Shown here piece by piece: positions 12,019-57,058 of a stretch of DNA of 64,000 bases. A program made the position numbers and the translations under genes. The stretch is taken from the NCBI GenBank assembly GCA_963834935.1, contig CAWIDS010000001.1:367642-431641 (forward strand), given 5' to 3'. The notes beneath the pieces are model-generated. The model did no database searches and was not told where the DNA came from. It worked only from the letters and a program-made list of their open reading frames with translations. How positions within the stretch are numbered: position 1 is the first letter of the stretch; each line of letters starts with the position of its first letter. This DNA comes from Candidatus Nomurabacteria bacterium (lineage in GTDB: Bacteria > Patescibacteriota > Minisyncoccia > Phycocordibacterales > CALRBL01).

Positions 12019-12051
12019 AAGTGAGAGTCATGCTAACATATCTTCCATATT

Positions 12052-14116: not shown

Positions 14117-14137
14117 TTTTGTGTTAACATTTCTGTA

Positions 14138-14257: not shown

Positions 14258-14318
14258 AAGTTTGCGGCAAATGTGCTCTTGGACATGAAGATGAAATCCT
14301 AACTCAACTCGGTCCTGT

Positions 14319-14831: not shown

Positions 14832-15055
14832 GTTTTTTATTTAACGAAGAAAGCTGTCTCCTTTTGAGGGGTGACAGCTTTTGTGTTCTTGTTGCTTTCG
14901 CCGGAGTAAACTCCGACCAATTTTCGGGACGAATCCCTATTCTGGAAACTTGCGCTCCGAACCCCTTCTTTTTTTAAGTTGGTTTGGCAACAAGAACAAG
15001 TACATTCTATATTATTGAAATACCCTGTCAAATATTTTTTTTTGGGGAAATAAAA

Positions 15056-15090
15056 AACCTCACTATTTCTAGTGAGGACATCAGGAGTTT
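15056..15090 (-). terminator. Intrinsic terminator for the minus-strand nucleotidyltransferase/hypothetical gene pair
   Basis: Read on the minus strand: CCTCACTAGAAATAGTGAGG followed by TTTTTT. Confidence 0.55.
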
Positions 15091-15110
15091 TTTATTTTCA
15101 ATACACGATT

Positions 15111-15362
15111 CTATTCGACCAGTTGCCAGGTAGGAATAGAGGTACCTTCAATTGCTTGGCATTTCCATTCAGGATGCTTGGTGATCATCGCGAGCGTACC
15201 TTCGACTCCACGAGGAAGCTTTGCATCCATCAGCCGGACGTACTCTTCAGAGATGGTTTCTTTTATTTTTTGCCAGCTTTCCACCGAATGGGAATCTGGG
15301 TTTAAGGGTGAAATGACAACCGCTTGGTGGTCACCTGGCAACAAGAGAACTATTGGTTTCAT
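15111..15362 (-). CDS. Hypothetical protein
   Basis: 83-aa ORF downstream of and co-oriented with the nucleotidyltransferase gene. A minus-strand intrinsic terminator follows at about 15056–15090. Confidence 0.35.
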   Translation of the reverse strand: MKPIVLLLPGDHQAVVISPLNPDSHSVESWQKIKETISEEYVRLMDAKLPRGVEGTLAMITKHPEWKCQAIEGTSIPTWQLVE

Positions 15363-15404
15363 TCACCTCGATAGTACATAACTATCTATAATAAGTAAAA
15401 TATC

Positions 15405-16064
15405 TTATTCTAAATCCTCCGGACTCGTAATCTGCTTCCAAAAGGTTGAATAATGTATCTTTATCGGTCGATCGCCAACAGCTTTACTAAATGTCTGAGG
15501 AAGGCCGAATTCATTGCTTCCATTCAGGCGCGCCATTTCGTAATTGAAAATTTCAGGGCAGAGGACACAGGCGCCGGTATAAGTGAGATTTGAAGGAATG
15601 ATATTTTCCTTATCCTCGACGATTTCTTTGAGACAATTGTTTTCATCGACTATTATCTTTCCACCACTTCGTCTCTCTTCTGATTTGTTAACCAAGATCG
15701 CCCAGTCTTTTTCTGATACGAGTTTTTCCAAATCTTCTTTCGAATAAATGTCGTCGCCCATAAGGACGAGGAATTCTTCAGTAAGGAGTTGTTTTGCTTC
15801 GAGGAGGGAATGAGCTGTACCAAGCGCTTCTTTTTGTTCAATATAATGAACATTTCTTCCATTCCATGAATTGCCAAAATACCCCTTGATCTTGTCACCA
15901 AGATAGCCGATTACCAGTACAATATCGGTGATTTCATCGGGAAGTGCATCAAATTTATGTTCAAGTAGATTCTTTCCTTTATACACAAGCATCGGTTTTG
16001 GGGTGGCAATACTCAAATCTCCCATCCTTTTTCCTTTCCCAGCAGCCAGTATTACGCATTTCAT
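15405..16064 (-). CDS. Sugar-phosphate nucleotidyltransferase (NTP_transferase fold)
   Basis: MKCVILAAGKGKRM is the G-rich N-terminal pyrophosphorylase motif (L-x2-G-x-G-T-R-M pattern), with later YIEQKEALGTAHSL. Start is taken at the Met 6 codons into the ORF. Confidence 0.7.
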   Translation of the reverse strand: MKCVILAAGKGKRMGDLSIATPKPMLVYKGKNLLEHKFDALPDEITDIVLVIGYLGDKIKGYFGNSWNGRNVHYIEQKEALGTAHSLLEAKQLLTEEFLVLMGDDIYSKEDLEKLVSEKDWAILVNKSEERRSGGKIIVDENNCLKEIVEDKENIIPSNLTYTGACVLCPEIFNYEMARLNGSNEFGLPQTFSKAVGDRPIKIHYSTFWKQITSPEDLE

Positions 16065-16079
16065 TATCGAAGATGATAT

Positions 16080-16200
16080 CACACAGCTCTGGAAGTCGGT
16101 TATTTTCTTGTTCTGCTTTTATGTAGCGTTTAGGATATCCTTCCGTTCAAGCGTAGTAAAAGTACGAAGAAGAAAATAACCGACTTCCAGAGCTGTGTGA
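16080..16200. repeat. 31-bp perfect inverted repeat (arms 16080–16110 and 16170–16200) with 59-bp spacer, between divergent nucleotidyltransferase gene and fusA
   Basis: TCACACAGCTCTGGAAGTCGGTTATTTTCTT ... AAGAAAATAACCGACTTCCAGAGCTGTGTGA; the arms are exact reverse complements. Confidence 0.8.
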
Positions 16201-16255
16201 TTGCGTATTTCCCCAAATAATGTTATTTTTCTCCTACTACTAATTAATTATATTT

Positions 16256-23959: not shown

Positions 23960-25324
23960 ATGAAAATTCCCTCAAAAGTACATTTCTGGCATAAATGCAT
24001 CGAATGCCAGTCAGTCTATACGCCTGATTCGTTTCTATATACTTGCCCGAAATGTGGCGGCCTGCTTTCTGTCGAGCGTGATGAGAAATGGATAGACAAG
24101 AAAGTAGGAAAAGGCAAAGCCGCCCAGAAATATTTCGATAATATCCGCTACGGAAAGGCTCGAAGTGTATATCCGAATGACAGCGGAGTCTTCATGTGGC
24201 TCGATCACCTTCTTCCCGGCTTTCCTAAAGAATTAGTCATCTCCCTTCGCGAAGGATTCACGGATCTGTTTGAGATTCCGCAGTGGCTCCAGAAGCAGAT
24301 CGGTCTCAAGCATCTCTACATAAAGATGGAAGGGCAGCTTCCGTCAGAAAGCTTCAAGGATCGGGGAATGTCGCTAGCTATTTCTGAAGCGCTTCGTTTG
24401 CAGAGCGAATACCCTAAGCTTGGCATCAAGTATGTTGCTTGCGCCTCGACAGGTGACACTTCAGCAGCTGCGGCTATCTACAGCGCCTACGTGAAAGACA
24501 AGCTCGGCTGCCTAGTTTTTCTTCCTCATGAGCGCATTTCCCCTGGCCAGCTTTTCCAGGCAATGGCACATGGAGCCAAGGTCCTGGCTATCAAGCACAA
24601 GAAAGGCTTCGATGGCTGCATGGAACTCATTCAGCAGTATTGCGCCAATCACCCCGAAATCGTATTGGTGAATTCAAAGAACGCTCTCAGGCTTGTCGGA
24701 CAAGAGACGATCGCGCTTGAAATATGCCAGGATCTGAGTTGGAAGGTACCGGATTGGATTTCCGTTCCTTGCGGAAACGGAGGCAACCTCACCGCGCTTC
24801 TTACCTCGCTTCTACGCATGAAGAAACGCGGACTCATCAGTAAACTTCCTAAGATTATCGTTGCTCAGACAAAAGGGGCGAACACCCTGGTGCGATGGTC
24901 AAAGAGCGATTTCAAGAAATATGCGCCAGGAGAATTCAAGGAAACCATCGCTTCAGCCATGAATATCCAAAGCCCTGTTAGCTTTCCTCGCATCAAAAAG
25001 CTTTATCCGGAGTTCCGAATCGAGTTCTTCGATGTTGATGAGAAAAAGATTCAACAAAGCAGAGCTCTATTCATGAGTGCGGGGGCCAACATCTGCCCGC
25101 AGACAGCCGTCGCCTTGAATGCTGTCCTTCAGGCCAGAAAAAAGGGTAAAATCAAGGAAAACGAGGTAATAGTGACTATTGGTACGGCTAGCGGCATCAA
25201 ATTCTCAGAATCAGGCATCGAATATCACATGGGAGGCAAGAAAAACACTCACGCTAATCCTCCTTTGATAGTCGAAGGCACCCTTTCAAGCATCGAAAAA
25301 GCGGTCGGAAACGGAAAGAAATAA
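23960..25324 (+). CDS. Threonine-synthase-family PLP enzyme with N-terminal zinc ribbon, inserted in the S10 operon
   Basis: N-terminal CIECQSVYTPDSFLYTCPKCGG is a 4-Cys ribbon. ESFKDRGMSLAISEA contains the PLP-lysine motif (SFKDRG) of fold-type II / threonine synthase. The Gly-rich loop CGNGGN is present. Length 454 aa. Confidence 0.7.
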   Translation: MKIPSKVHFWHKCIECQSVYTPDSFLYTCPKCGGLLSVERDEKWIDKKVGKGKAAQKYFDNIRYGKARSVYPNDSGVFMWLDHLLPGFPKELVISLREGFTDLFEIPQWLQKQIGLKHLYIKMEGQLPSESFKDRGMSLAISEALRLQSEYPKLGIKYVACASTGDTSAAAAIYSAYVKDKLGCLVFLPHERISPGQLFQAMAHGAKVLAIKHKKGFDGCMELIQQYCANHPEIVLVNSKNALRLVGQETIALEICQDLSWKVPDWISVPCGNGGNLTALLTSLLRMKKRGLISKLPKIIVAQTKGANTLVRWSKSDFKKYAPGEFKETIASAMNIQSPVSFPRIKKLYPEFRIEFFDVDEKKIQQSRALFMSAGANICPQTAVALNAVLQARKKGKIKENEVIVTIGTASGIKFSESGIEYHMGGKKNTHANPPLIVEGTLSSIEKAVGNGKK

Positions 25325-32739: not shown

Positions 32740-33345
32740 ATGGATATCAAAACAATAGTTTTAATGGGGCGGTCGGGTTGTGGAAAGGGAACGCAGTCGA
32801 AACTGATGGAAGAATATATCGGAAAGACTGACGCGGAAGTGCGGTCGCTCTTCTATCTTGAAACCGGTCCGGAATTCAGGCACTTTATCCGCAATGAAGG
32901 GTATTCCAACAGCCTTGCCCTCAAGGTCGCTCAGAATGCCGAGCGCCAGCCGGACTTCCTCGCTATCTGGGTCTGGGCGAACGTGCTTGTCGATCATCTT
33001 AAGGAGAACATGCATCTGCTTGTCGACGGCACCCCGCGCTCATTGCCGGAAGCACAAGCCCTTCACACCGCCATGCTTTTTTACGGCAGGCCGAAGCCAC
33101 TGATCGTTTATCTCAATGTCAGCCGCGCATGGTCTGAAAAGCATTTGAAAGCGCGCGGCAGGGAAGACGACCGCAAGGACGAAGATATCAAGCGCCGCCT
33201 GGACTGGTTCGAGTCCGATGTTCTTCCTGCTATTGATTATTTCCGCAATAATCCCTATTATCATTTCGTCGAGATAAATGGCGAGCAGGCCGTAGACGGC
33301 GTCCATCGCGACATACTTACTCTCTGTGGTTTTACCCAAGACTGA
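32740..33345 (+). CDS. adk: Adenylate kinase
   Basis: IVLMGRSGCGKGTQS is the P-loop. Length 201 aa. Confidence 0.9.
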   Translation: MDIKTIVLMGRSGCGKGTQSKLMEEYIGKTDAEVRSLFYLETGPEFRHFIRNEGYSNSLALKVAQNAERQPDFLAIWVWANVLVDHLKENMHLLVDGTPRSLPEAQALHTAMLFYGRPKPLIVYLNVSRAWSEKHLKARGREDDRKDEDIKRRLDWFESDVLPAIDYFRNNPYYHFVEINGEQAVDGVHRDILTLCGFTQD

Positions 33346-34096
33346 AAAAGAAATAGAGCTCATGAGACAAGGAGGCAAGATCCTTGCCTCTATTTTGCGC
33401 GAGATAAAAGGAAAAGTTGAAATCGGAGTTACGACGGATTTTCTGAATGATGAAGCAAACAGGCTGTGCGGGAAGCACAAAGTCATACCCAGCTTCTTGA
33501 ACTACACTCCATACGGGGCAGAGCGGCCATACCCCTCGAGCATCTGCATTTCAGTCAATGACGAAGTCGTCCATGGCATGCCGAATGAGAATCCGAAGAT
33601 CCTCAAGGAAGGGGATATCATTACTCTCGATATGGGCATTACCTACAAAGGATTAGTGGTTGATAGCGCAATCACTGTCGGTGTCGGAAAGATAGACGCC
33701 GAGGCAGAGAAGCTTCTCAAAGGCACGGAAGAATCCCTGGCAGCTGGAATCGCGGCAGCCAAGATCGGCAAGAAGACGGGAGATATCGGCGCCGCAATCG
33801 AAAAGGTGATTAATAAATACGGCTTCGGAATTCCCGAAGAGCTTGGCGGCCACGGCGTTGGTCATTCAGTGCACGAGGATCCTTTCGTTCCCAATTTCGG
33901 CAAGCCTCGCCAAGGAGCGGCAATCAAGAACGGCATGACCTTCGCCATCGAGCCGATCATCAACGAAGGCACGAAAAGGATCGTCCTTGCCCCCGACGGC
34001 TACACCTACCGGACCGCTGACGGAAAGCGGAGCGCCCATTTTGAGCATACGGTCGCGATCGTTGATGGAGTTGCTGAAATCTTGACTCAGGAATAA
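33326..34096 (+). CDS. map: Methionine aminopeptidase type I
   Basis: EIELMRQGGKILA, metal ligands D..D, H, E and E in the pita-bread fold (ITLDMGI, HGVGHSVHE, AIEP). It overlaps adk by 20 nt. Confidence 0.85.
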   Translation: MVLPKTEKEIELMRQGGKILASILREIKGKVEIGVTTDFLNDEANRLCGKHKVIPSFLNYTPYGAERPYPSSICISVNDEVVHGMPNENPKILKEGDIITLDMGITYKGLVVDSAITVGVGKIDAEAEKLLKGTEESLAAGIAAAKIGKKTGDIGAAIEKVINKYGFGIPEELGGHGVGHSVHEDPFVPNFGKPRQGAAIKNGMTFAIEPIINEGTKRIVLAPDGYTYRTADGKRSAHFEHTVAIVDGVAEILTQE

Positions 34097-34119: not shown

Positions 34120-36906
34120 ATGGAACTTTTTTCTTCGCCCCAAGAAGAGATCGAACATTTGAAGCAAGAGATCCTTCACAAGGAAGAGCTTTTGAAGCAG
34201 GCAGGCGAAAAGCCTGATCGTGATGCCGCGGTCTTCAATCAGATAGAGGAGTACAAGAAGCTTCCGCAGGCCGAAATCCTCGCCAAGGGCCATCGCATGA
34301 TCGAGCCGCATATCAAGAAGGCAGCACTCGACCTTTTTCCCGAAGAGCATGACGCTCAGATGGGCGAATTAATGGCGTTGCTCGAGGGGAAAGGGGTGCT
34401 CAATACGCTCGCGGTCGTCGAGGCCATGAAGAATCCGCATATAGAAGACGATTTTCACCGTTATCTCGTCGAGTACATCAAGAGCAATCTTCCGGCTTTG
34501 AACCTCAAGGAAAAGACTCCGCTTTATCGGTCTCTCAACCACACCCTTTTTGAAGTCTCTCTTCCCGAAGCCAAGAAAGACGAAAAAGAAAAGAATCTCA
34601 AGGAGCTCATTTCAAGCATGGAACAGTTCTACGCGGGAATGCTTTCAGTGGCTGACAGCAGCGACAAGGAAAATTATTTTTCGATTGAGCTGGCCCTCTC
34701 CCATGATAGCGACGAGTTCATCTTTTACGTCTCTGTTCCCGACAAGAAAAAAAGCCTCTTTGAGAAGAATATCCTCTCGGTCTTTCCGCATGCGAAGCTG
34801 GTCATAAAGAAGGACGATTATAACATCTTCAATCCGGATGGAGCGGTGGTTGCGTCGGTCGCCACGCAGGCCAAGAATGCCATTTACCCCATCAAGACCT
34901 ACGAGAATTTCGATTATGATCCGCTCAATGTCATCATAAATGCCTTTTCCAAGCTGAAGAAAGGAGGCGAAGGCGCATCACTGCAGCTTATCCTCAATCC
35001 TGCCGGTGATTACTACGTCAAGCGCTACAAGGATGCCCTCGGTCAGATTCTGAAGGGAGTGCCAGTGAAGAAAGCTATCGATATACGTCACACATTCATG
35101 GGGGAAATCGGAAAAGGCTTCAAGGAAATGGCTTTGGATATGGTCAACGATGCCGTCTCTTCAAGCAAGAAGGAGAACGACAAGCCGAAGCCACTCGATG
35201 AGACTGCAGTCGAAAACATAAAGAATAAGATCAGCACGCCGATCATGAATGCCAATATGAGGATAGTGGTATCAGCCGAGAATGCCGAGCGGGCATCGGA
35301 AGTGATATCAGAAATCGAGTCGTCCTTCAATCAGTTCGAGAATACGCTTGGCAATACGTTCAAGTGGCAGCGTATTCCGGAAAAAAAATTACCTCAATTC
35401 GTTCGCGATTTCACTTTTAGGATGTTCGAGCATGGCGAGCAGCTTCCTTTGAGTATTGCCGAAATCACCACCTTCATGCATTTTCCCGGAGCAGGCATCC
35501 TAGGCGGAGGCCAGCTCAAACAGGCTAAGGCCGGTACTGCTCCCGCACCACTTGATATTCCTCAGACTGGGGTCTACCTCGGAATAAACAGCCACCGCAA
35601 CCATGATGTTTCTGTTTACATGTCTCCCGAAGACCGCTTGCGTCATTTTTATGTTATAGGCCAGACCGGAACGGGAAAGACGACTCTTCTTAAGAATATG
35701 ATCGTCCAGGATATTGAGAACGGGGAAGGAGTCTGCTTCATTGATCCTCATGGATCGGACGTGCAAGATATCCTTGCTCGCGTGCCGAAGGAGCGTTACG
35801 GGGACGTTATCTATTTCGACCCGAGCTACCATGACCGTCCGATGGGCATGAATATGCTCGAATACGATCCTGCCTATCCTGAGCAAAAGACCTTCGTGGT
35901 CAATGAGCTCTTTTCTATTTTTGACAAGCTTTTCGATATGAAGACTACCGGAGGACCGATGTTCGAGCAATATTTCAGGAATGCCACCATGCTCGTGCTC
36001 GAGGATCCTGAAAGCGGCAACACACTAGTAGATGTTTCTCGCGTGCTTTCGAACAAAGCCTTTCGCGACCTGAAGATTTCCCGCTGCAAGAACCCGATTG
36101 TCACCCAGTTCTGGACGGAGATAGCCGCCAAAGCCGGCGGGGAATCGTCGCTTGCCAATATCGTGCCGTACATTACCAGCAAATTTGATGTGTTCCTGTC
36201 GAACGACATCATGCGCCCGCTCATTGCCCAGGAAAAATCCTCTTTCAATTTCCGGGAAGTGATGGATAAGAAGAAGATCCTACTTGTAAACCTCTCGAAG
36301 GGCAGGCTTGGCGACATCAATGCCAATCTTATCGGCCTCATTCTGGTCGGAAAGATCCTGATGGCAGCCCTTTCGCGCGTTGATTCGCTTGCCACAGGTT
36401 TTGCGCCTTTCTACTTGTACATCGACGAGTTTCAGAACATCACCACTAATTCCATCTCGACTATCCTTTCCGAGGCCCGCAAGTACAAGCTGTCGCTCCA
36501 TATCGCCCACCAGTTCATTGCCCAGCTCAAGGACGATATCCGCGATGCAGTCTTTGGCAACGTCGGCTCAATCGTCTCATATCGCGTGGGAGCAGAAGAT
36601 GCCGAGTATCTGGAGAAGCAATTCACGCCGGTATTCGCAGCCAATGACATCATGAATCTAGATAATCTTAATGCCTATGCCAAGCTTCTAATAAATGGCC
36701 GGCCGGCGCGTCCGTTCAATATCGCAGTGCCTTTCCCAAACAAGGTAGATACTTCACACCTCGAATCGCTTAAGCAGCTTTCATACCTTAAATACGGCAC
36801 CGACCGGGCAACAATCGAGGAAATCATCCTGCAAAAATACAAAAAAGAAGAACCCGTGCCCAAACCCGCTCCCGCAGCCAACCCATTCGATAGTTTGAAG
36901 GTCTGA
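34120..36906 (+). CDS. Large soluble P-loop ATPase, VirB4/VirD4 (TrwB/TraG)-like HerA–FtsK-superfamily domain with a 500-aa N-terminal domain of unknown function
   Basis: Walker A is YVIGQTGTGKTT at about aa 515 and Walker B is FYLYIDEFQNI at about aa 770, followed by ARKYKLSLHIAHQ. This is the Arg-Lys plus conserved Gln pattern of T4SS-type ATPases. There are no predicted TM helices and the N-terminus is coiled-coil. Confidence 0.6.
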   Translation: MELFSSPQEEIEHLKQEILHKEELLKQAGEKPDRDAAVFNQIEEYKKLPQAEILAKGHRMIEPHIKKAALDLFPEEHDAQMGELMALLEGKGVLNTLAVVEAMKNPHIEDDFHRYLVEYIKSNLPALNLKEKTPLYRSLNHTLFEVSLPEAKKDEKEKNLKELISSMEQFYAGMLSVADSSDKENYFSIELALSHDSDEFIFYVSVPDKKKSLFEKNILSVFPHAKLVIKKDDYNIFNPDGAVVASVATQAKNAIYPIKTYENFDYDPLNVIINAFSKLKKGGEGASLQLILNPAGDYYVKRYKDALGQILKGVPVKKAIDIRHTFMGEIGKGFKEMALDMVNDAVSSSKKENDKPKPLDETAVENIKNKISTPIMNANMRIVVSAENAERASEVISEIESSFNQFENTLGNTFKWQRIPEKKLPQFVRDFTFRMFEHGEQLPLSIAEITTFMHFPGAGILGGGQLKQAKAGTAPAPLDIPQTGVYLGINSHRNHDVSVYMSPEDRLRHFYVIGQTGTGKTTLLKNMIVQDIENGEGVCFIDPHGSDVQDILARVPKERYGDVIYFDPSYHDRPMGMNMLEYDPAYPEQKTFVVNELFSIFDKLFDMKTTGGPMFEQYFRNATMLVLEDPESGNTLVDVSRVLSNKAFRDLKISRCKNPIVTQFWTEIAAKAGGESSLANIVPYITSKFDVFLSNDIMRPLIAQEKSSFNFREVMDKKKILLVNLSKGRLGDINANLIGLILVGKILMAALSRVDSLATGFAPFYLYIDEFQNITTNSISTILSEARKYKLSLHIAHQFIAQLKDDIRDAVFGNVGSIVSYRVGAEDAEYLEKQFTPVFAANDIMNLDNLNAYAKLLINGRPARPFNIAVPFPNKVDTSHLESLKQLSYLKYGTDRATIEEIILQKYKKEEPVPKPAPAANPFDSLKV

Positions 36907-36926: not shown

Positions 36927-37514
36927 ATGACACATCCAAAATACGAAAGGACATTAGTGGTGCTGAAGCCTGACGCCTTGCAGCGAGGTTTGATAGGGGA
37001 AATCATTGGCCGCTTCGAAAGGGTAGGAATGAAGCTTGTCGGTATCAAGATGTTCACCCCCACTCAGGAATTTGTCGAGAAGCACTATACTTTGGACTCT
37101 GCCTGGAAAAAAAGCGTCGGTGAGAAGAATATAAAAGGTTATTTAGACAAAGGGCTCACTCCGCCAACGGCCGATCCTCTTGAAGCAGGACAGGAAATAC
37201 TCACTCGGCTTACGAATTATCTCGCCAGCGGGCCGATTGTGGCCATGGTCTGGCAGGGAGCGCACGCCGTCGGCCTGACACGCAAGCTCGTCGGTAGTAC
37301 CGAGCCTCTTTCATCAGATGTCGGAACCATCCGTGGCGACTTCGTTCATGATTCATATGTCCTTTCGGCTGATGATAAGCGTGCTGTGCGCAATCTCATC
37401 CACGCATCCGGCTCGATACCAGAAGCGGATATGGAAATTCCTCATTGGTTCTTGGAAAATGAGCTTGTGGACTACGTCTTAGTGCAGGAAAAAGTTCTGT
37501 ACGATGCAAATTAA
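36927..37514 (+). CDS. ndk: Nucleoside diphosphate kinase (long form with internal insertion)
   Basis: ERTLVVLKPDALQRGLIGEIIGRFE and NLIHAS(G)S match the active-site His region. Confidence 0.85.
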   Translation: MTHPKYERTLVVLKPDALQRGLIGEIIGRFERVGMKLVGIKMFTPTQEFVEKHYTLDSAWKKSVGEKNIKGYLDKGLTPPTADPLEAGQEILTRLTNYLASGPIVAMVWQGAHAVGLTRKLVGSTEPLSSDVGTIRGDFVHDSYVLSADDKRAVRNLIHASGSIPEADMEIPHWFLENELVDYVLVQEKVLYDAN

Positions 37515-37685: not shown

Positions 37686-37718
37686 AAAAGCACCGCATTG
37701 CTGCGGCGTTTTTTTGTT
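37686..37718 (+). terminator. Intrinsic terminator upstream of the 37739 gene (end of candidate sRNA / leader)
   Basis: GC-rich hairpin GCACCGCATTGCTGCGGCG followed by TTTTTTTGTTTT. Confidence 0.55.
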
Positions 37719-37738: not shown

Positions 37739-39295
37739 ATGGGGGTAACTCCATTGTGCCGTCCCCCCTCTCATGTAGAATTAAGAGATGAAAAAACAAT
37801 AGGCCTTCTCTTGGCATTATCATTGATCGTACCCACGTTAGCGTCGGCTAGCATAGGCAGCACAGTCAGTTCGTTTTTCGATTCGATTTTTCAGCTTCTC
37901 GACCTTTCTAATCAGACTGCTCAAGTAGCTCCCGCCGTCACTACTACCACGACTGCGGTCGCTTGTACCGATTTCAGCCGTACACTCGAATATGGCCAGG
38001 AAAGCTGGATAAATTTTGCGTATGGCTATGCTAGCTACGCAAGCAGCCATATCAGTAATGACCAGCAGCAGGCTGTCGACGTAAGCAATCTTGCTACGGC
38101 AGTCAAGAATGACACTGCCAAGCTGCAGAATATTCTCACCACTAGCGAAGGCGCTTCCATAAACGATGCTAAAGGCGTCTATGGAATAGATACCGTCAAG
38201 GCAGTCTTTGCTTTCCAGAACAAATACAATATTCCTGGCGCAGTGCCGGGAGTTTTCGACGCTCCTACTTTTGCTGAAGCTAACCAGCTTTATGGCTGCT
38301 TGAACAGGGCTTCAGTGACTCTCGTATCTCCAAACGGCAAATTCAAAGTGTTTCCCGATCAGAGCATCAGCATAAAATACTCCCTTGCAAAGATCCCTAA
38401 TACTACCAACCTTACGATCAGCTACTTGACCGCCCCATCATCTGTCGATACGACTGTCGTTGGAAATGTCATAGCAGTTGTGACATCAGTCAAAAACGGT
38501 AACGGGACATATACATGGCAAGTTCCTACAGGACTTGCGCCAGGAGAATACAAGCTAAGGCTCGTCCTCACCGGTAGTACCAAGAGTGACGTGAGTGATA
38601 ATGCTTTTACGGTGACTTCTCAAGTGCCTGATCTTTCAGTTTCTTTTCCGGATTCAGGTACAGTTCTCACCACTGGGCAGGTTTATGACATAAAATGGAA
38701 GTCGCTTACGGGAGCGAATGACACTTACACCATATCTCTTACTGGTCCGGGCGTAAGCAATATCACTCTCGGGACGGTAAATGCTTTGGCTGGCGATTTC
38801 AAGTGGCAAGTTCCGACGACTATCACCCCTTCAGACGGCTTCGGGCTGCTCTTCAATAATTCTACCAACCCTTCATCCCTCCAGTCAGCCTCAAAATCTT
38901 TCTCTATCGAGGCACCGAGCACGTCAGCTCTTAATTTCCTCATCCATTCAAAATTCCTAGGGGAAGAGAAGCAGAATAATTCGGTCACTACAGAAGACAG
39001 CTCCCTTTCAATTGATTCCATTACTGGATCTTCAGCAGGAAAGATCGATCATTGGAGCATGACTTTGATGTGTCCGACGAATTTGAGCCTCTATACGTCG
39101 AACGGCACCGCAAAAACGGCTTGCGATGGTAGGACTCCATTGAACATATCGAATATCAATGCTATTCCTGAGATACGAGTGATACGAAACGATGGTATAA
39201 GCGGAGGATCCATTCAGCTAGAGATAAAAGCATATGACAAATCGGGGAATGTCCTTGGTGATAAGACGTACTCATTAGCAGTAGCTTTTGGATAA
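37739..39295 (+). CDS. Secreted Ser/Thr-rich protein with putative peptidoglycan-binding (PG_binding_1-like) domain
   Basis: A signal-like hydrophobic segment (IGLLLALSLIVPTLASA) is present. GVYGIDTVKAVFAFQNKYNIPGAVPGVFDAPTF resembles the PG-binding repeat. Long Thr/Ser/Asn-rich repeats follow. Confidence 0.55.
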   Translation: MGVTPLCRPPSHVELRDEKTIGLLLALSLIVPTLASASIGSTVSSFFDSIFQLLDLSNQTAQVAPAVTTTTTAVACTDFSRTLEYGQESWINFAYGYASYASSHISNDQQQAVDVSNLATAVKNDTAKLQNILTTSEGASINDAKGVYGIDTVKAVFAFQNKYNIPGAVPGVFDAPTFAEANQLYGCLNRASVTLVSPNGKFKVFPDQSISIKYSLAKIPNTTNLTISYLTAPSSVDTTVVGNVIAVVTSVKNGNGTYTWQVPTGLAPGEYKLRLVLTGSTKSDVSDNAFTVTSQVPDLSVSFPDSGTVLTTGQVYDIKWKSLTGANDTYTISLTGPGVSNITLGTVNALAGDFKWQVPTTITPSDGFGLLFNNSTNPSSLQSASKSFSIEAPSTSALNFLIHSKFLGEEKQNNSVTTEDSSLSIDSITGSSAGKIDHWSMTLMCPTNLSLYTSNGTAKTACDGRTPLNISNINAIPEIRVIRNDGISGGSIQLEIKAYDKSGNVLGDKTYSLAVAFG

Positions 39296-39320
39296 AAAGA
39301 AAATCAGTTATAATCAGCTG

Positions 39321-40688
39321 ATGTCCAAACAACTTAAGCTGACTTTTTGCGGCGGATCGGGATCGGTGACCGGAGCGGATTTTCTTCTAGAGAATGAGAA
39401 CGTGAAGATACTCGTCGATTGCGGAATGGAACAAGGTACGAAAGTAGCGGATCAGTTCAATCACGCGCCTTTTCCGTACGATCCTGCCGAGATAGACATC
39501 CTGCTCGTCACTCATGGCCATATCGATCATGTCGGAAAGATTCCGAAGCTTGTGAAGGACGGCTTCAAAGGAATCATTTATTCCACGCCCGAAACCAAAG
39601 ACATCTCGGCCCTGATGCTCGAAGATAGCGTCAAGATTCTCGGTCAGGAAGCAGTCCGCAATGGCGTGCTGCCTCTTTATGAGGAAAAAGATGTTCAAAA
39701 AGCTTTTTCTTTCTGGAAGACTATCCCTTATCATCAGAAGACCGCCATCTTCCCTGAATTCGAAGTGTATATAAAAGACGCTGGTCATGTCCTTGGCTCG
39801 TCGATGTATGAAATACTGTACAACGGCAAAAAAATAGTTTTCACAGGTGACTTAGGAAACTCACCCACGCCGCTTCTCCGCGATACCGAAGATATTACTG
39901 ACGCTGATTACCTGATCATGGAAAGCGTCTATGGAGATCGCAATCATGAAGAGAAGGAACAAAGGAAAGCCAAGCTCGAAGATGTCATCGAAGATACCGT
40001 GAAAAGGAAAGGGGTACTGATGATTCCGTCATTTTCACTCGAGAAGACGCAAGTGATCCTCTACGAGATCAATGACCTCATCGAGGAAGGCCGCGTGCTG
40101 TCACTTCCGGTGTACATCGACTCGCCTTTGGCTATAAAGATCACCGAAATCTACAAGCGCTATCCCCAGGATTTCAATCCTGCCACACAGAAGCTCATCA
40201 AAGGAGGCGATGACATCTTCAATTTCCCTAAACTTCATTTCACCTCGACTTCCGACGAATCGAAAGCAATCAAGATGACTCCCGACCCAAAGATAATCAT
40301 CGCCGGTTCCGGAATGTCCAATGGTGGCCGCATCACACATCATGAATTGAATTATCTTCCTGATCCGAGAAACACTCTTCTTCTTGTAGGCTATCAGGCG
40401 GTCAATACTCTCGGCCGTCAAATCAGGGAAGGAGCGAAATCAGTCACTCTTTTCGGCCAGAACGTGCCTGTCCGCGCCCGCGTCGAGCATATCGACGGCT
40501 ATTCTTCTCACAAGGACTCCGAGCATCTAGTGGAATTCGCTGCAAAGACGGCAGATACGGTGAAGAAGGTCTTCGTGGTCATGGGAGAGCCGAAATCATC
40601 CCTTTTCCTCGTACAGCGTCTCCGTGATTATTACGGGATTGAAGCATACAATCCGATGCAAGGAGACAGCGTCATCTTAGAATGCTAA
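39321..40688 (+). CDS. Metallo-beta-lactamase / beta-CASP ribonuclease (RNase J-like)
   Basis: ATG at 39321 gives MSKQLKLTFCGGSGSVTGADFLL. The HxHxDH motif (THGHIDHVG) and beta-CASP motifs follow. Confidence 0.75.
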   Translation: MSKQLKLTFCGGSGSVTGADFLLENENVKILVDCGMEQGTKVADQFNHAPFPYDPAEIDILLVTHGHIDHVGKIPKLVKDGFKGIIYSTPETKDISALMLEDSVKILGQEAVRNGVLPLYEEKDVQKAFSFWKTIPYHQKTAIFPEFEVYIKDAGHVLGSSMYEILYNGKKIVFTGDLGNSPTPLLRDTEDITDADYLIMESVYGDRNHEEKEQRKAKLEDVIEDTVKRKGVLMIPSFSLEKTQVILYEINDLIEEGRVLSLPVYIDSPLAIKITEIYKRYPQDFNPATQKLIKGGDDIFNFPKLHFTSTSDESKAIKMTPDPKIIIAGSGMSNGGRITHHELNYLPDPRNTLLLVGYQAVNTLGRQIREGAKSVTLFGQNVPVRARVEHIDGYSSHKDSEHLVEFAAKTADTVKKVFVVMGEPKSSLFLVQRLRDYYGIEAYNPMQGDSVILEC

Positions 40689-40700: not shown

Positions 40701-41282
40701 ATGAACACTGATAACAAGCATGGCAACAACAAGATAAAGATTTGCGTTTCTGGCTCGGCTGACATGAGTTTCCTTCCGCCTGAAGATTACGAGCGGGCGA
40801 AAGAGCTAGGGCGCGAAATTGTGCGCCAAGGAGCAACCCTTCTCACTGGCGCCACCACCGGTTTTCCGCTCTGGGCAGCCATGGGCGCAAAGGAACAAAA
40901 AGGCATTTCCATCGGTTTCTCGCCGGCATCAACTGAAAAAGAACACGTCAAGACATACCGGCTACCTTTGGATTACATGGATATTATCGTGTACACGGGA
41001 TTCAACTACACTGGCCGGGATCTTCTCCTCACTCGATCTTCAGACGCTGTCATCATCGGTCCGGGAAGGATAGGCACTATTCACGAATTCACTATTTCGT
41101 ACGAAGATAACAAGCCGGTCGGCGTGCTTGAAGGAGATTGGGATACTGATGAAGTCATCAGGAACATAATGGAAAAAAGCCATAGGACTAATCCGAAGAT
41201 CATCTTCGGCAAAGACCCTAAGGCTCTCGTAGCGAGGATCATTGAGATGGTGAAAAATGAGAAAGAGGAGATAAGGCTGTAA
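40701..41282 (+). CDS. LOG-family / TIGR00725 Rossmann-fold nucleotide-binding protein
   Basis: The LOG-like pattern has an N-terminal ICVSGSA Rossmann motif and PGRIGTIHEF (PGGxGTxxE). Length 193 aa. Confidence 0.6.
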   Translation: MNTDNKHGNNKIKICVSGSADMSFLPPEDYERAKELGREIVRQGATLLTGATTGFPLWAAMGAKEQKGISIGFSPASTEKEHVKTYRLPLDYMDIIVYTGFNYTGRDLLLTRSSDAVIIGPGRIGTIHEFTISYEDNKPVGVLEGDWDTDEVIRNIMEKSHRTNPKIIFGKDPKALVARIIEMVKNEKEEIRL

Positions 41283-43477: not shown

Positions 43478-43880
43478 GGGAATGACAGGCATCGACAGGA
43501 GAAGCCATTCCTGATTTGCGGCATAGAGCTCCGGGAACTCTTTAAAAGCCCGGAAAACCGAAATGCAAAATCTGCACTTTCAATGGCCAAGTCTGTTGTG
43601 TCTCCGTATTTCGGAGCCAACGATTTCGCTTTCGCTTACGTCCGAGCCTAAATTTTAGACTCGCGCCTAGCGACGCTTCATGGTCCTAGTCCTCTCGGGA
43701 ACAGCGGAGTGTTATAAAGATGAGGATGCTTCGCCAAGCGCCCCGTACGGCGACCAAGACAAGGGGCAAAGCTGACGACCATTTTGTTGATTTCAAGGCC
43801 GTCATTCGAACAAATCATCTACATGCCGTAGATTAGTCAGGAACCTCTCTTGCACCCGAGTTCAATTCTCGGCATTTCCA
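43478..43880 (+). ncRNA. ssrA: Transfer-messenger RNA (tmRNA, ssrA)
   Basis: The 5' GGGAATG pairs with the 3' CATTTCC as an acceptor stem with a G3·U wobble. The conserved ATCGACAGG box follows the 5' strand. A T-arm CCGAG-TTCAATT-CTCGG precedes the 3' acceptor strand and a discriminator A. An internal tag ORF GCC AAC GAT TTC GCT TTC GCT TAC GTC CGA GCC TAA encodes ANDFAFAYVRA. smpB lies about 2.6 kb downstream. Confidence 0.8.
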
Positions 43881-44014
43881 CTATTTTATTGTCTTCAAGT
43901 AGGCTTTGTAAGATAGGGCGTCCAGAGACGTCCTTTTAAAACGTGAAGGGCCCCAAGCCCTCCGGATCGATATACATTATCAAGGTCGCTTAACATTATT
44001 AGCATTATAAACAT

Positions 44015-46430: not shown

Positions 46431-46480
46431 ATGCCGGTCCCATCATGGGGGCCGGCATTTACTCTTCCTTTTTTATTTTA
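46431..46480. terminator. Bidirectional terminator (GC hairpin ATGCCGGTCCCATCATGGGGGCCGGCAT plus T-rich tract) shared by the upstream GC-rich element and smpB
   Basis: Hairpin followed by TTACTCTTCCTTTTTTATTTTAT on the plus strand. It lies immediately downstream of the smpB stop on the minus strand. Confidence 0.55.
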
Positions 46481-46916
46481 TCTTCCTGCCGATATCCCTT
46501 TCAGTATCCCGTTTCTTAATGCTTTGGCGCTTGTCGAATTTCTTCTTGCTTTCGGCGATGGCTATGTCGATCTTTATCTTGTTCTTCGAAGTATAAATCG
46601 AAAGGGGAATGAGGGTCTGCTTCTTCTTCGAATCGATGTCCGCCATCTCTTTTATCTCCTTCTTGTGGAGGAGTAACTTTCTGGGACGATGGGCGTCATA
46701 TGAAGAAAGAGCGTTGGCTGGCTGGAAAGCAGGAATATTCGCTCCGACGAGGAATGCTTCGCCGCCGCGCACTATTATATATGAGCCCTCAAGAGAAGAG
46801 CCTCCTTGCCTCAGGGATTTCACCTCGGTGCCCAGAAGCTCGATGCCTGCCGACATCTTTTCTTTGATCTCGTAGTTGAAATATGCCTTTTTGTTAGATG
46901 AAAGCTCCATGATCAA
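46473..46916 (-). CDS. smpB: SsrA-binding protein SmpB
   Basis: NKKAYFNYEI.E....GIEL.GTEVKS.......L..SY...........GANI..Y.......HRPRKLLLHKKEI is the SmpB signature. Confidence 0.9.
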   Translation of the reverse strand: MIMELSSNKKAYFNYEIKEKMSAGIELLGTEVKSLRQGGSSLEGSYIIVRGGEAFLVGANIPAFQPANALSSYDAHRPRKLLLHKKEIKEMADIDSKKKQTLIPLSIYTSKNKIKIDIAIAESKKKFDKRQSIKKRDTERDIGRKIK

Positions 46917-46947: not shown

Positions 46948-48846
46948 ATGCACCATACTATGCCTGAAAATAAACACAAGAAGAATCAGAAACGGACCAG
47001 GATGCCCCGAAGCAATAGCCTGATAAATGCCCTTGTCATATTCATCCTGCTCATCATTGCTTATGCTTTTCTGGTCTCTCGCGATACATCCAATAATTCC
47101 ATCACTCTTTCCGACCTTGCCAACGACGTCAATGCCGGAAAAGTCAGTGAAATCGTCGTAAGGGGACAGGATCTTACTATCACCTATGCCGACAAGACCA
47201 TAAAGACTTCAAAAAAAGAGGCTGAAGATTCGCTTTCCACTACTCTTGTGAATTATGGCGTGCCTGCGGCAAAGATTGACGCGGTAAAGATTGACATCGA
47301 GAACGAGGGAGGCTTCGCCTATTGGTTCATCAATCTCGCTCCGTTCGTCATTCCGCTCATCGGAGTGGCTTTCTTCATCTGGATAATTACCCGCCAGATG
47401 AAAGGGACGGGAATGCAGGCATTCAGCTTCGGCCAATCGAAGGCGCGCATGACAGGCCCTGATGACAAGAAGCAGCGTGTTACCTTCAAAGATGTCGCTG
47501 GCGCCAAGGAAGCCAAGGAAGAGCTTTCAGAGATCGTTGACTTTCTGAAGAATCCGAAAAAGTTCTTGGACATCGGTGCCCGCATTCCGAAGGGAATATT
47601 GCTTATGGGTGCGCCTGGAACCGGAAAGACTTTGCTTGCCCGCGCTGTAGCTGGAGAGAGCAATGTCTCATTCTTCTCGATCTCCGGTTCGGAATTCGTC
47701 GAGATGTTCGTCGGAGTCGGTGCTTCGCGTGTCCGTGATCTTTTCAAGGTCGCCAAGCAGAACGCGCCCGCAATCATCTTCGTTGATGAGATCGATGCTG
47801 TTGGCCGTGTTCGAGGAACCGGAATGGGCGGCGGAAACGACGAGCGAGAACAGACCTTGAACCAGATTCTTGTCGAAATGGATGGCTTTGAACCGAACGA
47901 GAAAGTGATCGTCATGGCAGCCACTAACCGTCCCGATGTCCTTGACCCTGCGCTTCTTCGCCCGGGCCGCTTTGACCGCCGTGTCACTATAGACCTTCCT
48001 GATCGGTCTGATCGCGAGGCAATACTTGAAGTGCATTCAAAAGAAAAACCTTTTGCCGAAGATGTCGATTTGAAACTGATTGCAGAGCGAACGCCGGGAT
48101 TTTCCGGCGCCGACCTTTATTCGCTTATGAATGAAGGAGCTATCCTCGCGGCTCGCGAGAACCGCACTAAAGTTGCCCAGTTCGACCTCATCCGTTCGAT
48201 CGAAAAAGTGATGCTCGGTCCTGAACGCCGCAGCCATATCCTTTCAGTAAAAGAAAAAGAGCTCACTGCCTATCACGAAGCCGGACACGCCATTGTTGCT
48301 TCGGTCCTTCCGTATGCCGACCCGGTGCACAAGGTTTCTATCATCTCGCGCGGCCGTGCCGCCGGCTATACTCTCAAGCTTCCGCTTGAAGACAGGAAGC
48401 TTCAATCCAAAAAGGAATTCCTCGACGATATTGCTGTCTCTCTCGGGGGCTATGTCGTCGAGAAGGAGATCTACGGCGACCTCACCACAGGTTCTTCGAA
48501 CGACCTACAGGTCTCGAGCGCCTTGGCGCGCGACATGGTCACCAAATACGGAATGTCCGAGAGGATCGGTCCGATCGCCCTTGAAAGTTCCGGCGGTCGT
48601 GCTATGTTTGGTCGCGGGGTGGAAGACAAGGAATATTCAGCGGAAGTCGGCAAGCTCATCGATGAAGAAGTATCCAAAATAATGAATGAAGCGATGAAGA
48701 AGACCGAAGAAATCGTCGCTACTCACCGAAAGGCGCTTGATGCGATCGCCCAGCGTCTCGTCGCTGTCGAGACTATTGAAAGGGAAGAGTTCGACAATCT
48801 TCTCATCGCCAACGGCATCGTACCCAAAAAGAAGGAAATCGTTTAA
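46948..48846 (+). CDS. ftsH: ATP-dependent zinc metalloprotease FtsH
   Basis: An N-terminal TM pair, the AAA Walker A ([17 protein letters not shown]), the SRH, and the HEAGHAIV zinc motif. Confidence 0.95.
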
Positions 48847-56734: not shown

Positions 56735-57058
56735 ATGGAAAAACCTAATTCCGCATTACTGGAAGAAAATATGAAAGCTTCTGGATCAGACTCTGAAGTG
56801 TCAGGAGAAAAAGAGGTCTCAGAAGCAGAAAACAGTCATACAGAATTAGTAAAATTTAGCAAAAGATATTCTCACGAAGGTCGTCAAAAGATAGCTGAAG
56901 AAATAAAGGAGTTACGTTTTCAGTATTTTAAAAAGGAAAAAGGAAATCCTGAACGTCAAAAAACTATTGATGAACAAGAAAAAAGTATCGAGGTACTTCA
57001 AAAAGAAAAAGAACAATGTACCGGACCCCTTTCTTTAGACACTCATTCTACTCACTAA
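56735..57058 (+). CDS. Lys/Glu-rich coiled-coil hypothetical protein, 3' end truncated by IS insertion
   Basis: The last 14 codons (..CTGPLSLDTHSTH*) are read from the IS terminal inverted repeat that begins at 57017. Confidence 0.35.
   Translation: MEKPNSALLEENMKASGSDSEVSGEKEVSEAENSHTELVKFSKRYSHEGRQKIAEEIKELRFQYFKKEKGNPERQKTIDEQEKSIEVLQKEKEQCTGPLSLDTHSTH

Follow-up and report, generated by a model that had tools for sequence, protein, structure and literature searches.

A conserved chromosomal DUF8128 ATPase of Patescibacteria as a possible anchorless coupling protein of the type IV secretion system

A 928-residue ATPase encoded between the methionine aminopeptidase (map) and nucleoside diphosphate kinase (ndk) genes of a Candidatus Nomurabacteria bacterium, here called DUF8128-T4CP, joins a C-terminal motor domain of the VirD4/TraD/TrwB type to a soluble N-terminal region, and its gene belongs to the vertically inherited core of Paceibacteria/Parcubacteria, where it is conserved like SecY and the ribosomal proteins. 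[quoted passage not shown] Much of bacterial diversity belongs to the Patescibacteria, which subsist at the expense of host cells. To our knowledge, the need of a bacterium for its own T4SS in order to grow was first demonstrated in this group. The window, i.e., the whole stretch of DNA that was analyzed (64,000 nt), contains the following features of interest, and the encoded protein is identical to P0001 on a 432-kb NCBI contig.

33326..34096, plus strand: map, methionine aminopeptidase, upstream neighbor (PF00557, E 2.5e-42)
34120..36906, plus strand: DUF8128-T4CP ATPase gene, 928 aa (ORF call)
34120..34494, plus strand: N-terminal helical module, residues 1-125 (six short helices in both models)
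34495..35499, plus strand: DUF8128 (PF26449) alpha/beta domain, modeled with a VirB4 N-terminal-domain-like fold, residues ~126-460
35500..35574, plus strand: poorly ordered linker with a conserved TAPAP stretch, residues ~461-485 (models, family consensus)
35575..36759, plus strand: VirD4/TraD/TrwB-type P-loop motor domain, residues ~486-880 (Pfam, NCBIfam, motifs)
36760..36903, plus strand: C-terminal helices and Pro-rich tail with a conserved terminal PF motif, residues ~881-928 (models, family consensus)
36927..37514, plus strand: ndk, nucleoside diphosphate kinase, downstream neighbor (PF00334, E 2e-34)
37693..37716, plus strand: terminator-like hairpin and T-run after ndk (consensus scan, pattern match only)

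The C-terminal half is a T4CP ATPase of the VirD4/TraD/TrwB type, and not a VirB4, as judged by sequence. The motifs that the original prediction had read were recovered, namely Walker A (GQTGTGKT, residues 514-521), Walker B (YLYIDE(F), residues 765-771), and ARKYKLSLHIAHQ (residues 786-798), and both Walker motifs are invariant or nearly invariant across the family. Scores above the curated Pfam cut-offs were obtained for PF02534 (T4SS-DNA_transf, 30.6 versus 20.1 bits, residues 508-833), PF12696 (TraG-D_C, 24.8 versus 22 bits), PF10412 (TrwB_AAD_bind, 23.3 versus 20.5 bits), and PF01935 (DUF87, 24.9 versus 23.2 bits), the last of which is confined to residues 495-545. The top NCBIfam matches were SXT_TraD and the CD1115 VirD4-like family, with all equivalog and subfamily cut-offs missed by a wide margin (e.g., SXT_TraD, 50 versus 366 bits). 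TrwB and DotL/IcmO were the only solved structures found when the family profile was compared with PDB sequences, a result slightly better than that of the single protein, which gave only a weak match to the TrwB P-loop. TrwB of R388, VirD4, TraD/TraG, and DotL/IcmO share the VirD4-type P-loop domain and the TraG-D_C region with DUF8128-T4CP; a helical insert of eight helices (residues ~589-717, model pLDDT 55-80) lies between Walker A and Walker B, where canonical T4CPs have their all-alpha domain, and PF10412 spans this region in relatives. Confidence in the structural model is low for the ATPase half (pLDDT 50-75).

Other members of the superfamily fit this half poorly. No match to the VirB4 Pfam models PF12846 (AAA_10) and PF03135 was found in DUF8128-T4CP, TIGR00929 (VirB4) matched at nothing but the P-loop (20.8 bits, cut-off 643), and hhalign against a genuine AAA_10 VirB4 from a Bacillus plasmid gave a probability of 0.9%. 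The expectation of a "VirB4/VirD4-like" protein was thus correct in its VirD4/TraD/TrwB part, and it did not hold for VirB4 except in the fold of the N-terminal domain. The FtsK/SpoIIIE motor model PF01580 had no match in the protein and only sub-threshold P-loop matches in a few relatives, and the N-terminal membrane domain of FtsK/SpoIIIE is likewise absent. HerA (NF040819) reached 15 bits versus a cut-off of 970, with no full-length match to the HAS barrel plus ATPase arrangement. A defense-system ATPase was also considered and rejected, as the PADLOC HerA matches covered the P-loop only and mad8 (E 6e-12) the ATPase domain only; no defense partners were adjacent to the gene. The broader assignment, to the type IV secretion ATPases within the HerA/FtsK superfamily and as a soluble protein, was supported.

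The N-terminal half differs from what had been expected, a 500-residue coiled coil of no known family: only residues ~1-125 form a bundle of short helices, and residues ~126-460 are the alpha/beta domain DUF8128, modeled confidently (pLDDT 84.6). The PF26449 assignment is a precomputed Pfam match, given without a score, that the identical protein shares with all of the 120 closest clusters. In structural alignment, the full-length model is co-linear with TrwK chains, and this domain of about 335 residues has, in the model, the fold of a VirB4-type N-terminal domain. A literature search for PF26449 or DUF8128 found no publication. VirB4 proteins (TrwK and the Gram-positive AAA_10 type) follow the same plan of a soluble alpha/beta N-terminal domain and then a motor, but DUF8128-T4CP has no significant sequence similarity to them and is not encoded beside VirB3, VirB6, or VirB8 genes. 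The helical module carries a conserved NPH..DDFHRfLV motif and is the least conserved part of the protein (median identity 38%), whereas the motor domain is the most conserved (71%); the linker between the two halves has pLDDT below 50 at residues 461-474. Short-form relatives are without most of the helical module. At locus L094 the module corresponds to a separate upstream ORF of 141 aa (hmmsearch E 1.8e-5 in a three-locus ORF set; hhalign E 7e-4, probability 27%), and a small upstream ORF at locus L095 was rejected as a detached module because the short form there itself retains half of it.

Canonical T4CPs are tethered to the membrane by two N-terminal transmembrane helices. As had been predicted, DUF8128-T4CP has none: the highest 19-residue Kyte-Doolittle window (1.94, residues 733-751) falls on a core helix of the ATPase domain, no transmembrane-like segment occurs in the N-terminal 700 residues, and the hydropathy picture is the same across 77 family members. 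The place of the N-terminal transmembrane domain is taken by a soluble region of about 460 residues; the membrane anchor has been replaced by the VirB4-like DUF8128 domain together with the helical module of about 125 residues. In further contrast to canonical T4CPs, the gene is chromosomal, single-locus, conserved like those for ribosomal proteins, and not linked to relaxase or virB genes.

Relatives of DUF8128-T4CP were detected in at least 592 species genomes, and full-length identity to it is 59% or higher in more than 120 clusters. The median identity to the window protein is 54%, where SecY and the ribosomal proteins of these genomes give 49-64%, and patescibacterial orthologs are 51-78% identical. 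Orphan T4CP homologs in Patescibacteria are already known. According to a 2025 survey by Quinonero-Coronel et al. (PMC12102498), thousands of orphan VirD4-type homologs exist in this phylum, where they are near-universal and encoded away from virB4; T4CP homologs were counted in 2,918 genomes and VirB4 in 2,417, typical Parcubacteria genomes in Table S3 have one t4cp1 match flagged as not near VirB4, and separate t4cp2 (TcpA/FtsK-like) matches are also listed. DUF8128-T4CP, which shares the phylum, the near-universal occurrence, and the distance from virB4, very probably belongs to this set, and the sections and tables consulted contain no description of the N-terminal domain, the VirB4-like fold, the loss of the anchor, or the map/ndk synteny.

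The gene lies 23 nt after map and 20 nt before ndk, downstream of an intact S10-spc-secY-adk-map series, in agreement with the original prediction. It had also been suggested that the alpha operon was replaced after map; infA, rpsM, and rpoA are indeed absent there and were not found after map in any related locus, but no replacement has occurred, the position between map and ndk being an old, fixed arrangement in Paceibacteria/Parcubacteria (map, zero to three variable ORFs, the DUF8128-T4CP gene, ndk). Among 80 related loci, map is upstream on the plus strand in about 35 (within 400 nt in 15 of the 69 with sufficient upstream flank) and ndk is present in about 40 (within 500 nt in 24 of the 70 with sufficient downstream flank), and the order is common to most sub-clades. 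In two or three sub-clades, the gene instead lies beside the dcw cluster (mraZ-rsmH-ftsL-ftsI-murF), a relocation that tracks lineage, and recR, rmuC, dnaB, and dnaX also occur as alternative neighbors. The idea that the two synteny classes represent two paralogs was rejected, since context follows sub-clades at equal divergence, which indicates relocated orthologs. The neighbors in the 80 loci are all housekeeping genes, and neither VirB6/VirB8-type or other T4SS genes nor relaxase or mating-pair-formation genes were found within 10 kb on either side in the window or in these loci, as anticipated for the first two. One MAG was observed to carry two copies of the gene (L001 and L002).

Placement in the tail of the ribosomal super-operon was supported as well. 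The hairpin at 37693-37716 is the first intergenic plus-strand terminator-like site downstream of secY, the few earlier matches being intra-coding, and it probably ends a transcription unit with map, the DUF8128-T4CP gene, and ndk, so far as a pattern match can indicate; co-transcription with the ribosomal operon is plausible. The whole window is without Shine-Dalgarno motifs, and TAtAAT/AATAAT-like strings stand 4-10 nt before most starts, including those within the ribosomal operon, so the junction sequences are uninformative on co-transcription. Because these features are window-wide, TATAAT-N6-ATG before the gene and TGcTAGAAT-N6-ATG before ndk were rejected as evidence for a dedicated promoter of a leaderless mRNA.

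Outside Patescibacteria, the cellular relatives with an informative setting lie in conjugation or T4SS modules, with distant full-length ones in those of Firmicutes. On the Bacillus subtilis plasmid NZ_CP032854.1, the first gene of a Tcp-like conjugation operon encodes an 886-aa relative (WP_121549396.1; hhalign against the family profile, probability 100, E 2e-39, 680 columns). A Replic_Relax gene comes immediately after it, with TcpC, TcpE, and an AAA_10 VirB4 further downstream, and the same gene order is found on a Shouchella clausii plasmid. Such operon-heading proteins of small Bacillaceae plasmids, for example WP_121549396.1 and WP_248290882.1 on NZ_CP012476.1, are annotated as "DUF87 domain-containing protein". 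In Clostridium botulinum pCLK, an 800-aa relative (WP_012300815.1; probability 99.8, E 1e-29) overlaps and follows a TrbC/VirB2 pilin gene, and another match is a TraG-like ORF on Sulfolobus pNOB8. These three WP proteins are similar in length to DUF8128-T4CP and homologous across DUF8128 and the ATPase, being 21-25% identical and without the first ~145-190 residues (the helical module); unlike DUF8128-T4CP, they are plasmid-borne and encoded in a T4SS operon beside a Replic_Relax or VirB2 pilin gene, and, being uncharacterized, they provide context only. The nearest relatives whose surroundings are informative are thus ATPases in the coupling position of conjugation modules from Gram-positive bacteria.

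On the proposed coupling role, DUF8128-T4CP would oligomerize, probably as a hexamer like TrwB, and dock through its VirB4-like N-terminal domain on the inner-membrane platform of the MPF-FATA-derived T4SS, where it could bind VirB3/VirB8-type partners, sit next to a VirB4 protomer, or substitute for one; ATP hydrolysis might then drive the transfer of a macromolecule, either nucleic acid or protein, to the channel. The survey and a second study describe the patescibacterial T4SS as derived from the monoderm MPF-FATA type and, in a Saccharimonadia model, as essential for epibiotic growth (PMC12102498, PMC12857230). Several findings count against coupling to this T4SS: the 80 loci are free of T4SS genes within 10 kb, the survey places T4CPs in more genomes than VirB4 (PMC12102498), and the ATPase model is of low confidence. 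The survey also reports that, in Ca. Southlakia epibionticum, the t4cp homolog, which may be of another family, is not essential, whereas other T4SS genes are. In addition, phages of Bacillus and Geobacillus encode full-length relatives although they carry no T4SS, and stand-alone soluble relatives of the ATPase domain exist, and this motor is evidently able to work without a T4SS.

These last observations bear on a second explanation, namely that a descendant of coupling proteins was exapted to housekeeping as a T4SS-independent cytoplasmic nucleic-acid motor, for example in chromosome or replicon segregation, in DNA resolution or clearing at division, or in recombination and repair. The missing membrane anchor, the lack of virB linkage, the alternative neighbors (dcw genes, recR, rmuC, dnaB, dnaX), and a conservation equal to that of the translation and secretion core would all suit such a motor, and exaptation is entertained by the survey authors themselves (PMC12102498). 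The phage relatives point the same way: members of PHROG phrog_5156 (phage G gp156, TP-84 gp48, D6E ORF23) have the two-domain architecture of DUF8128-T4CP (E 3e-78, positions 37-811 of 824) and share its N-domain fold (BFVD E 1e-17), but they are viral, 19-21% identical, and encoded between lysis and early/lysogeny-replication genes, that of D6E near a partition gene. However, all non-patescibacterial cellular relatives with informative context belong to conjugation/T4SS modules, the VirB4-like N-terminal domain serves for docking to the platform in the one homolog whose structure is solved, the t4cp2 matches of Table S3 make an additional FtsK-type translocase probable (PMC12102498), and housekeeping synteny is weak functional evidence in genomes so small. 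The housekeeping explanation is considered less likely than the coupling role.

A role in importing host DNA or RNA, through ComEC and type IV pili (T4P) or through an inward-running T4SS that feeds nucleotide salvage, is unlikely. Nucleic-acid translocation is a T4CP property, adk and ndk flank the gene, the genes that come next in many genomes encode a beta-CASP nuclease and a SLOG protein, and a 2026 preprint describes a cultivated member of the Minisyncoccota for which host RNA serves as food and T4SS-like tubes are seen where the two cells meet (10.64898/2026.06.21.733656). On the other hand, adk owes its presence to the universal spc operon, and the linkage to ndk and the beta-CASP nuclease is lost in the dcw-context clades. 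The archaeal Ced import ATPases CedB and CedD gave weak matches (E 6e-4 to 8e-4), limited to the P-loop. ComEC, PilC, a pilin-like protein, and RecJ are encoded in the window, as the original prediction had noted for ComEC and T4P, but the ComEC, PilC, and pilin-like genes are more than 23 kb away and comEC/pil linkage was seen in none of the 80 loci, leaving the suggested uptake motor tied to ComEC/T4P without specific support. In the reviews consulted, none of the competence systems relies on a T4CP, and Ca. Southlakia epibionticum is viable despite a mutation abolishing natural transformation, from which it follows that T4P/T4SS essentiality is not owed to ComEC (PMC12857230). The more specific version, in which DUF8128-T4CP, docked by its VirB4-mimicking N-domain, would be the missing motor of the essential T4SS run inward, reeling in host RNA or DNA from which beta-CASP, Adk, and Ndk make NTPs, is a quite speculative and improbable one; if true, it would explain why a conjugation-type motor is a core gene at the end of the ribosomal operon.

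Recent acquisition of the gene after map as an ICE or phage remnant is effectively refuted: despite the phrog_5156 match, relatives in 534 plasmid and 11 phage records, and an rve-family transposase elsewhere in the window (57035-57856), the position is conserved across many sub-clades, GC content (0.48-0.50) equals that of the flanks, the gene is neither surrounded by a repeat pair nor close to an integrase or relaxase, identity is only 19-27% for plasmid and phage relatives versus 51-78% for patescibacterial orthologs, and a viral origin was rejected because only 8 of 2.9 million IMG/VR contigs matched, distantly (30-40% identity) and in the ATPase half only. The possibility of a recent island with mobile flanks and no synteny, raised with the original prediction, was thus examined and found to be contradicted by conserved synteny and the lack of mobile flanks.

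With these analyses, a fold can now be assigned to DUF8128, so far a Pfam domain of unknown function, and the combination of a T4CP-type motor with a VirB4-type N-terminal domain bears on the divergence of the two sister type IV secretion ATPases. As the product of a core gene, with a VirB4-like putative docking domain and with full-length relatives in the coupling position of Gram-positive conjugation operons and beside a VirB2 pilin gene, DUF8128-T4CP provides a concrete, testable candidate for substrate coupling to the patescibacterial T4SS.

The gene under study is a 928-codon ORF that lies downstream of an intact S10-spc-secY-adk-map series and encodes a protein with the motifs of a P-loop ATPase:

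33326-34096, map, methionine aminopeptidase (PF00557), ending 23 nt upstream of the ORF
34120-36906, + strand, the 928-codon ORF
36927-37514, ndk, nucleoside diphosphate kinase (PF00334), starting 20 nt downstream of the ORF
residue 514 of the protein, Walker A, GQTGTGKT
residue 765 of the protein, Walker B, YLYIDE(F)
residues 786-798 of the protein, third quoted motif, ARKYKLSLHIAHQ

The ORF call, the flanking Pfam matches and a check of the motifs bear out the size, position and ATPase motifs of the original prediction. No transmembrane segment was detected by hydropathy (19-residue windows) in this protein or in 77 family members, and the highest-scoring window (residues 733-751, 1.94) corresponds to a helix in the core of the ATPase domain.

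Residues ~486-880 score above the curated Pfam cut-offs for coupling-protein families:

residues 508-833, T4SS-DNA_transf (PF02534), 30.6 bits against a cut-off of 20.1
TraG-D_C (PF12696), 24.8 bits against a cut-off of 22
TrwB_AAD_bind (PF10412), 23.3 bits against a cut-off of 20.5

The top NCBIfam models for the 928-aa protein were SXT_TraD and the CD1115 VirD4-like family, all far under the equivalog cut-offs, and the VirB4 model TIGR00929 reached 20.8 bits (cut-off 643) in the P-loop only. When a family profile of 33 diverse members was used, the PDB sequences matched were TrwB and DotL/IcmO only, and a genuine AAA_10-type VirB4 of a Bacillus plasmid gave no match (probability 0.9%). Judged by sequence, the motor belongs to the VirD4/TraD type, that is, the type IV coupling proteins (T4CPs), and is neither a VirB4 nor a generic AAA ATPase. 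The superfamily assignment made earlier was thus correct, given the Pfam coupling-protein matches above cut-off, and the VirD4/TraD-type sequence rules against a generic AAA domain.

The N-terminal half had been described as a 500-residue coiled coil of no family, which is contradicted by the precomputed Pfam domain PF26449 (DUF8128) present in all close homologues; no mention of this domain was found in literature searches. The 14 best Foldseek matches of the full-length model were all TrwK/VirB4 chains (TrwK is the VirB4 of R388), with ~700-940 aligned columns and low TM-scores (~0.2) that are due to domain orientation and the poorly modelled ATPase half (pLDDT 50-75). Because other RecA-like ATPases and Hcp proteins were absent among the top matches of the N-terminal half, the match probably concerns the VirB4-specific part, its N-terminal domain. 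In the 928-aa protein as a whole, an N-domain with a VirB4-type fold is joined to a motor that is T4CP-type in sequence, and the membrane anchor of T4CPs is absent.

The first ~125 residues form a helical module, most of which is missing from short-form members of the family. In at least one lineage (locus L094), a separate 141-aa ORF (9574-9999, + strand) consists of this module with its NPH..D..H..LV motif and abuts a short-form DUF8128-T4CP gene located downstream (10001-12523); its counterpart in the window's family is residues ~60-130 of the DUF8128-T4CP protein itself. The equivalent upstream ORF in another locus (L095) showed no similarity to the module. The split arrangement in L094 suggests that the helical module is a separable subunit, joined to the motor protein in some lineages and encoded apart from it in others.

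A search of a large protein collection revealed more than 120 clusters with full-length identity of at least 59%, all from Parcubacteria/Paceibacteria-type sources, the named ones being labelled 'TraM recognition domain-containing protein'. Taken by itself, the N-domain yields ~1,015 representatives when clustered at 50%, relatives are encoded in at least 592 species-level genomes, and the same DUF8128-ATPase fusion is kept in all divergent members checked (27-40% identity, 800-1120 aa). Across 25 genomes sharing all markers, the median identities to the window proteins were as follows:

928-aa gene, 54%
SecY, 60%
Map, 51%
Adk, 35%
Ndk, 48%
ribosomal proteins, 49-64%

Within the 928-aa protein, identity was 71% in the ATPase domain, 44% in DUF8128 and 38% in the helical module. 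This pattern marks the gene as part of the vertically inherited core. Two loci of the Nomurabacteria MAG CALRBL01 carry one member with 77% and one with 63% identity to the window protein, representing either a true paralogue pair or a mixed bin.

Synteny was compared across 80 fetched loci. In about half of those with usable flanks, the order is rpsE-rplO-secY-adk-map, 0-3 lineage-specific ORFs, the family gene and ndk, followed by a small TM protein, a beta-CASP nuclease, a SLOG protein and reverse-strand rplT/rpmI/infC. Two or three related sub-clades carry the family gene after mraZ-rsmH-ftsL-ftsI-murF and before yqeY, rmuC, recR, dnaB and cysS, and the other remaining loci place it amid assorted unclustered genes; short-form members have PBP, FtsQ-like, PMT, GtrA and dnaX genes as neighbours. 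Gene context follows sub-clade membership while sequence divergence is equal, indicating that the genes in the alternative contexts are relocated orthologues. The original prediction had the gene replacing the alpha operon, which is overstated: infA/rpsM/rpoA follow map in none of the compared genomes, so the spc/alpha split is old and was not made by this gene. The region downstream of ndk in the window holds the following genes:

37739-39295, + strand, 518-aa protein, predicted to be secreted, that has Ig-like repeats of the Kre9/KNH-like kind plus a weak peptidoglycan-binding domain
39288-40688, + strand, beta-CASP/metallo-beta-lactamase nuclease, also given as Anti-Pycsar_Apyc1 in the precomputed Pfam list
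40701-41282, + strand, SLOG cluster-4 (LDcluster4) protein

The nuclease-SLOG pair is kept in many related genomes, again downstream of ndk, and the secreted-type protein is lineage-specific, being a singleton cluster among the 80 loci.

No terminator-like site was found in the 23-nt and 20-nt gaps around the ORF. The first intergenic hairpin with a T-run after secY lies beyond ndk (37693-37716, + strand), which makes it plausible that map, the 928-aa gene and ndk are co-transcribed with the ribosomal operon. TATAAT-like strings before the starts of the 928-aa gene and ndk were considered as promoters and rejected, because similar strings precede most starts in this genome. Shine-Dalgarno motifs are essentially absent from starts in the window (e.g., 29968, 34120, 36927, 56735, 60288, and 61104), and most genes, those of the ribosomal operon among them, are preceded by a TAtAAT/AATAAT/TAAAAT-like string whose end lies 4-10 nt from the start. 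Such strings could be AT-rich signals for non-SD initiation or could mean that leaderless transcripts are widespread. Other features of the window are:

13982-16255, low-GC stretch (0.40 vs ~0.47 elsewhere) between rpsG and fusA, suggestive of an insertion into the str operon
14319-14831 (+), 15111-15362 (-) and 15405-16082 (-), three non-ribosomal ORFs of this stretch, the start of the last resembling a nucleotidyl-transferase (ILAAGKGKRMG)
23960-25324, + strand, 454-aa PLP-dependent enzyme (PF00291 PALP, E 5e-46) whose N-terminus bears a Cys-rich, zinc-ribbon-like motif, between rplB and rpsS of the S10 operon, another non-ribosomal gene within the super-operon
43478-43883, + strand, tmRNA (Rfam 79.7 bits, missed by ARAGORN), ~2.6 kb from smpB
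46473-46916, - strand, smpB
46948-48846, FtsH
57035-57856, - strand, IS3-like integrase-core transposase (rve, rve_3, HTH_21)
58908-60191, - strand, AAA_14/DUF4143 ATPase adjoining the transposase (GC of the stretch 0.42-0.44), with it a probable mobile element unrelated to the 928-aa gene

Relatives were also found in phages and plasmids. The PHROGs family phrog_5156 matches residues 153-909 (E 3e-78), and tblastn placed its kin in Bacillus phage G (gp156), Geobacillus phages TP-84 (gp48) and D6E (ORF23), and others; these homologues are 19-21% identical with both domains aligned, share the N-domain fold (BFVD, E 1e-17) and are located between lysis genes and early/lysogeny genes. IMG/VR gave only eight distant matches to the ATPase half, comprising stand-alone soluble ATPases of ~360-450 aa and one 874-aa protein with a hydrophobic N-terminus. 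The plasmid relatives tell more: 534 records match, and 278 of these are from Bacillus. On the B. subtilis plasmid NZ_CP032854.1, an 886-aa homologue (hhalign probability 100, E 2e-39, 680 columns, both domains) is first in a Tcp-like conjugation operon, followed by Replic_Relax (PF13814), two small ORFs, TcpC (PF12642), a small ORF, a TcpE-family protein, an AAA_10 VirB4 (389 bits), a small ORF and a 784-aa transfer protein; a Shouchella clausii plasmid has the same order. An 800-aa member of C. botulinum pCLK (probability 99.8, E 1e-29) overlaps the stop codon of a TrbC/VirB2 pilin gene, and the Sulfolobus pNOB8 TraG-like ORF also matches. Thus, cellular relatives with informative context are all inside type IV secretion/conjugation modules, and in Bacillaceae plasmids the family member holds the coupling-protein position beside a relaxase-type gene. 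The small Bacillaceae plasmids NZ_CP032854.1 and NZ_CP012476.1 are typed 'non-mobilizable' by MOB-suite, which may be an under-call given their apparently complete Tcp-like operon (DUF87/DUF8128-type ATPase, Replic_Relax, TcpC, TcpE, and AAA_10 VirB4).

According to a recent survey (Quinonero-Coronel et al. 2025, PMC12102498), of 3,035 Patescibacteria genomes 2,417 encode VirB4, which forms a clade nested within the monoderm MPF-FATA class. The survey counted 5,713 T4CP homologues in 2,918 genomes, of which just 148 lie close to virB4. Orphan VirD4-type genes in Patescibacteria are thus already published there; in Ca. Southlakia epibionticum the t4cp homologue proved non-essential by Tn-seq, and exaptation 'cannot be ruled out' in the authors' words. 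A 2025 review (PMC12857230) emphasises that the patescibacterial type IV secretion system (T4SS), with VirB2-like pilins, is essential for epibiotic growth, and a 2026 preprint (10.64898/2026.06.21.733656) reports one cultivated Minisyncoccota that lives on host RNA and shows T4SS-like tubes at the interface.

We give roughly an even chance to the 928-aa protein being an anchorless coupling ATPase that docks on the T4SS and energises substrate delivery. To the observed architecture, homologies and conservation this reading adds docking, partner and substrate, which we infer: the ATPase would oligomerise, its VirB4-like N-domain may dock it peripherally on the T4SS inner-membrane platform, and the docked motor would then energise delivery of a macromolecular substrate. 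The main rival, a nucleic-acid motor that would serve chromosome maintenance or division independently of the T4SS, is possible but distinctly less probable; it is favoured by the uniformly housekeeping neighbourhoods (dcw, recR, rmuC, dnaB, and dnaX), by phage homologues without any T4SS and, as a published hint, by T4CP homologues occurring in more genomes than VirB4 (PMC12102498). The DNA uptake originally proposed, here widened to import of host nucleic acids, seems rather unlikely: the adk/ndk/beta-CASP neighbourhood and the preprint on RNA feeding (10.64898/2026.06.21.733656) make it attractive, but adk merely belongs to the spc operon, ndk linkage is lost in some clades, and the gene has no linkage to comEC or pil genes, which leaves the supposed competence link unsupported. 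A recent mobile origin is effectively refuted, as the core-gene conservation signature and a context that is shared or tracks sub-clade argue against a recent island lacking synteny; GC of the gene (0.48-0.50) equals that of its flanks, no repeat pair brackets it, and no relaxase, integrase or VirB4/B6/B8 cluster was found in any of the 80 loci.

In the sources consulted, no description was found of the VirB4-NTD-like fold of DUF8128, of the absent anchor, of conservation at core-gene level, of synteny with map and ndk, or of a relationship to the Bacillaceae, Clostridium and phage proteins. The analysis assigns a fold to DUF8128 and describes a T4CP-type motor that has no anchor, carries a VirB4-like N-domain and has become fixed among the core genes. 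The 928-aa protein is a specific candidate for the coupling motor so far missing from an essential, poorly understood secretion system.
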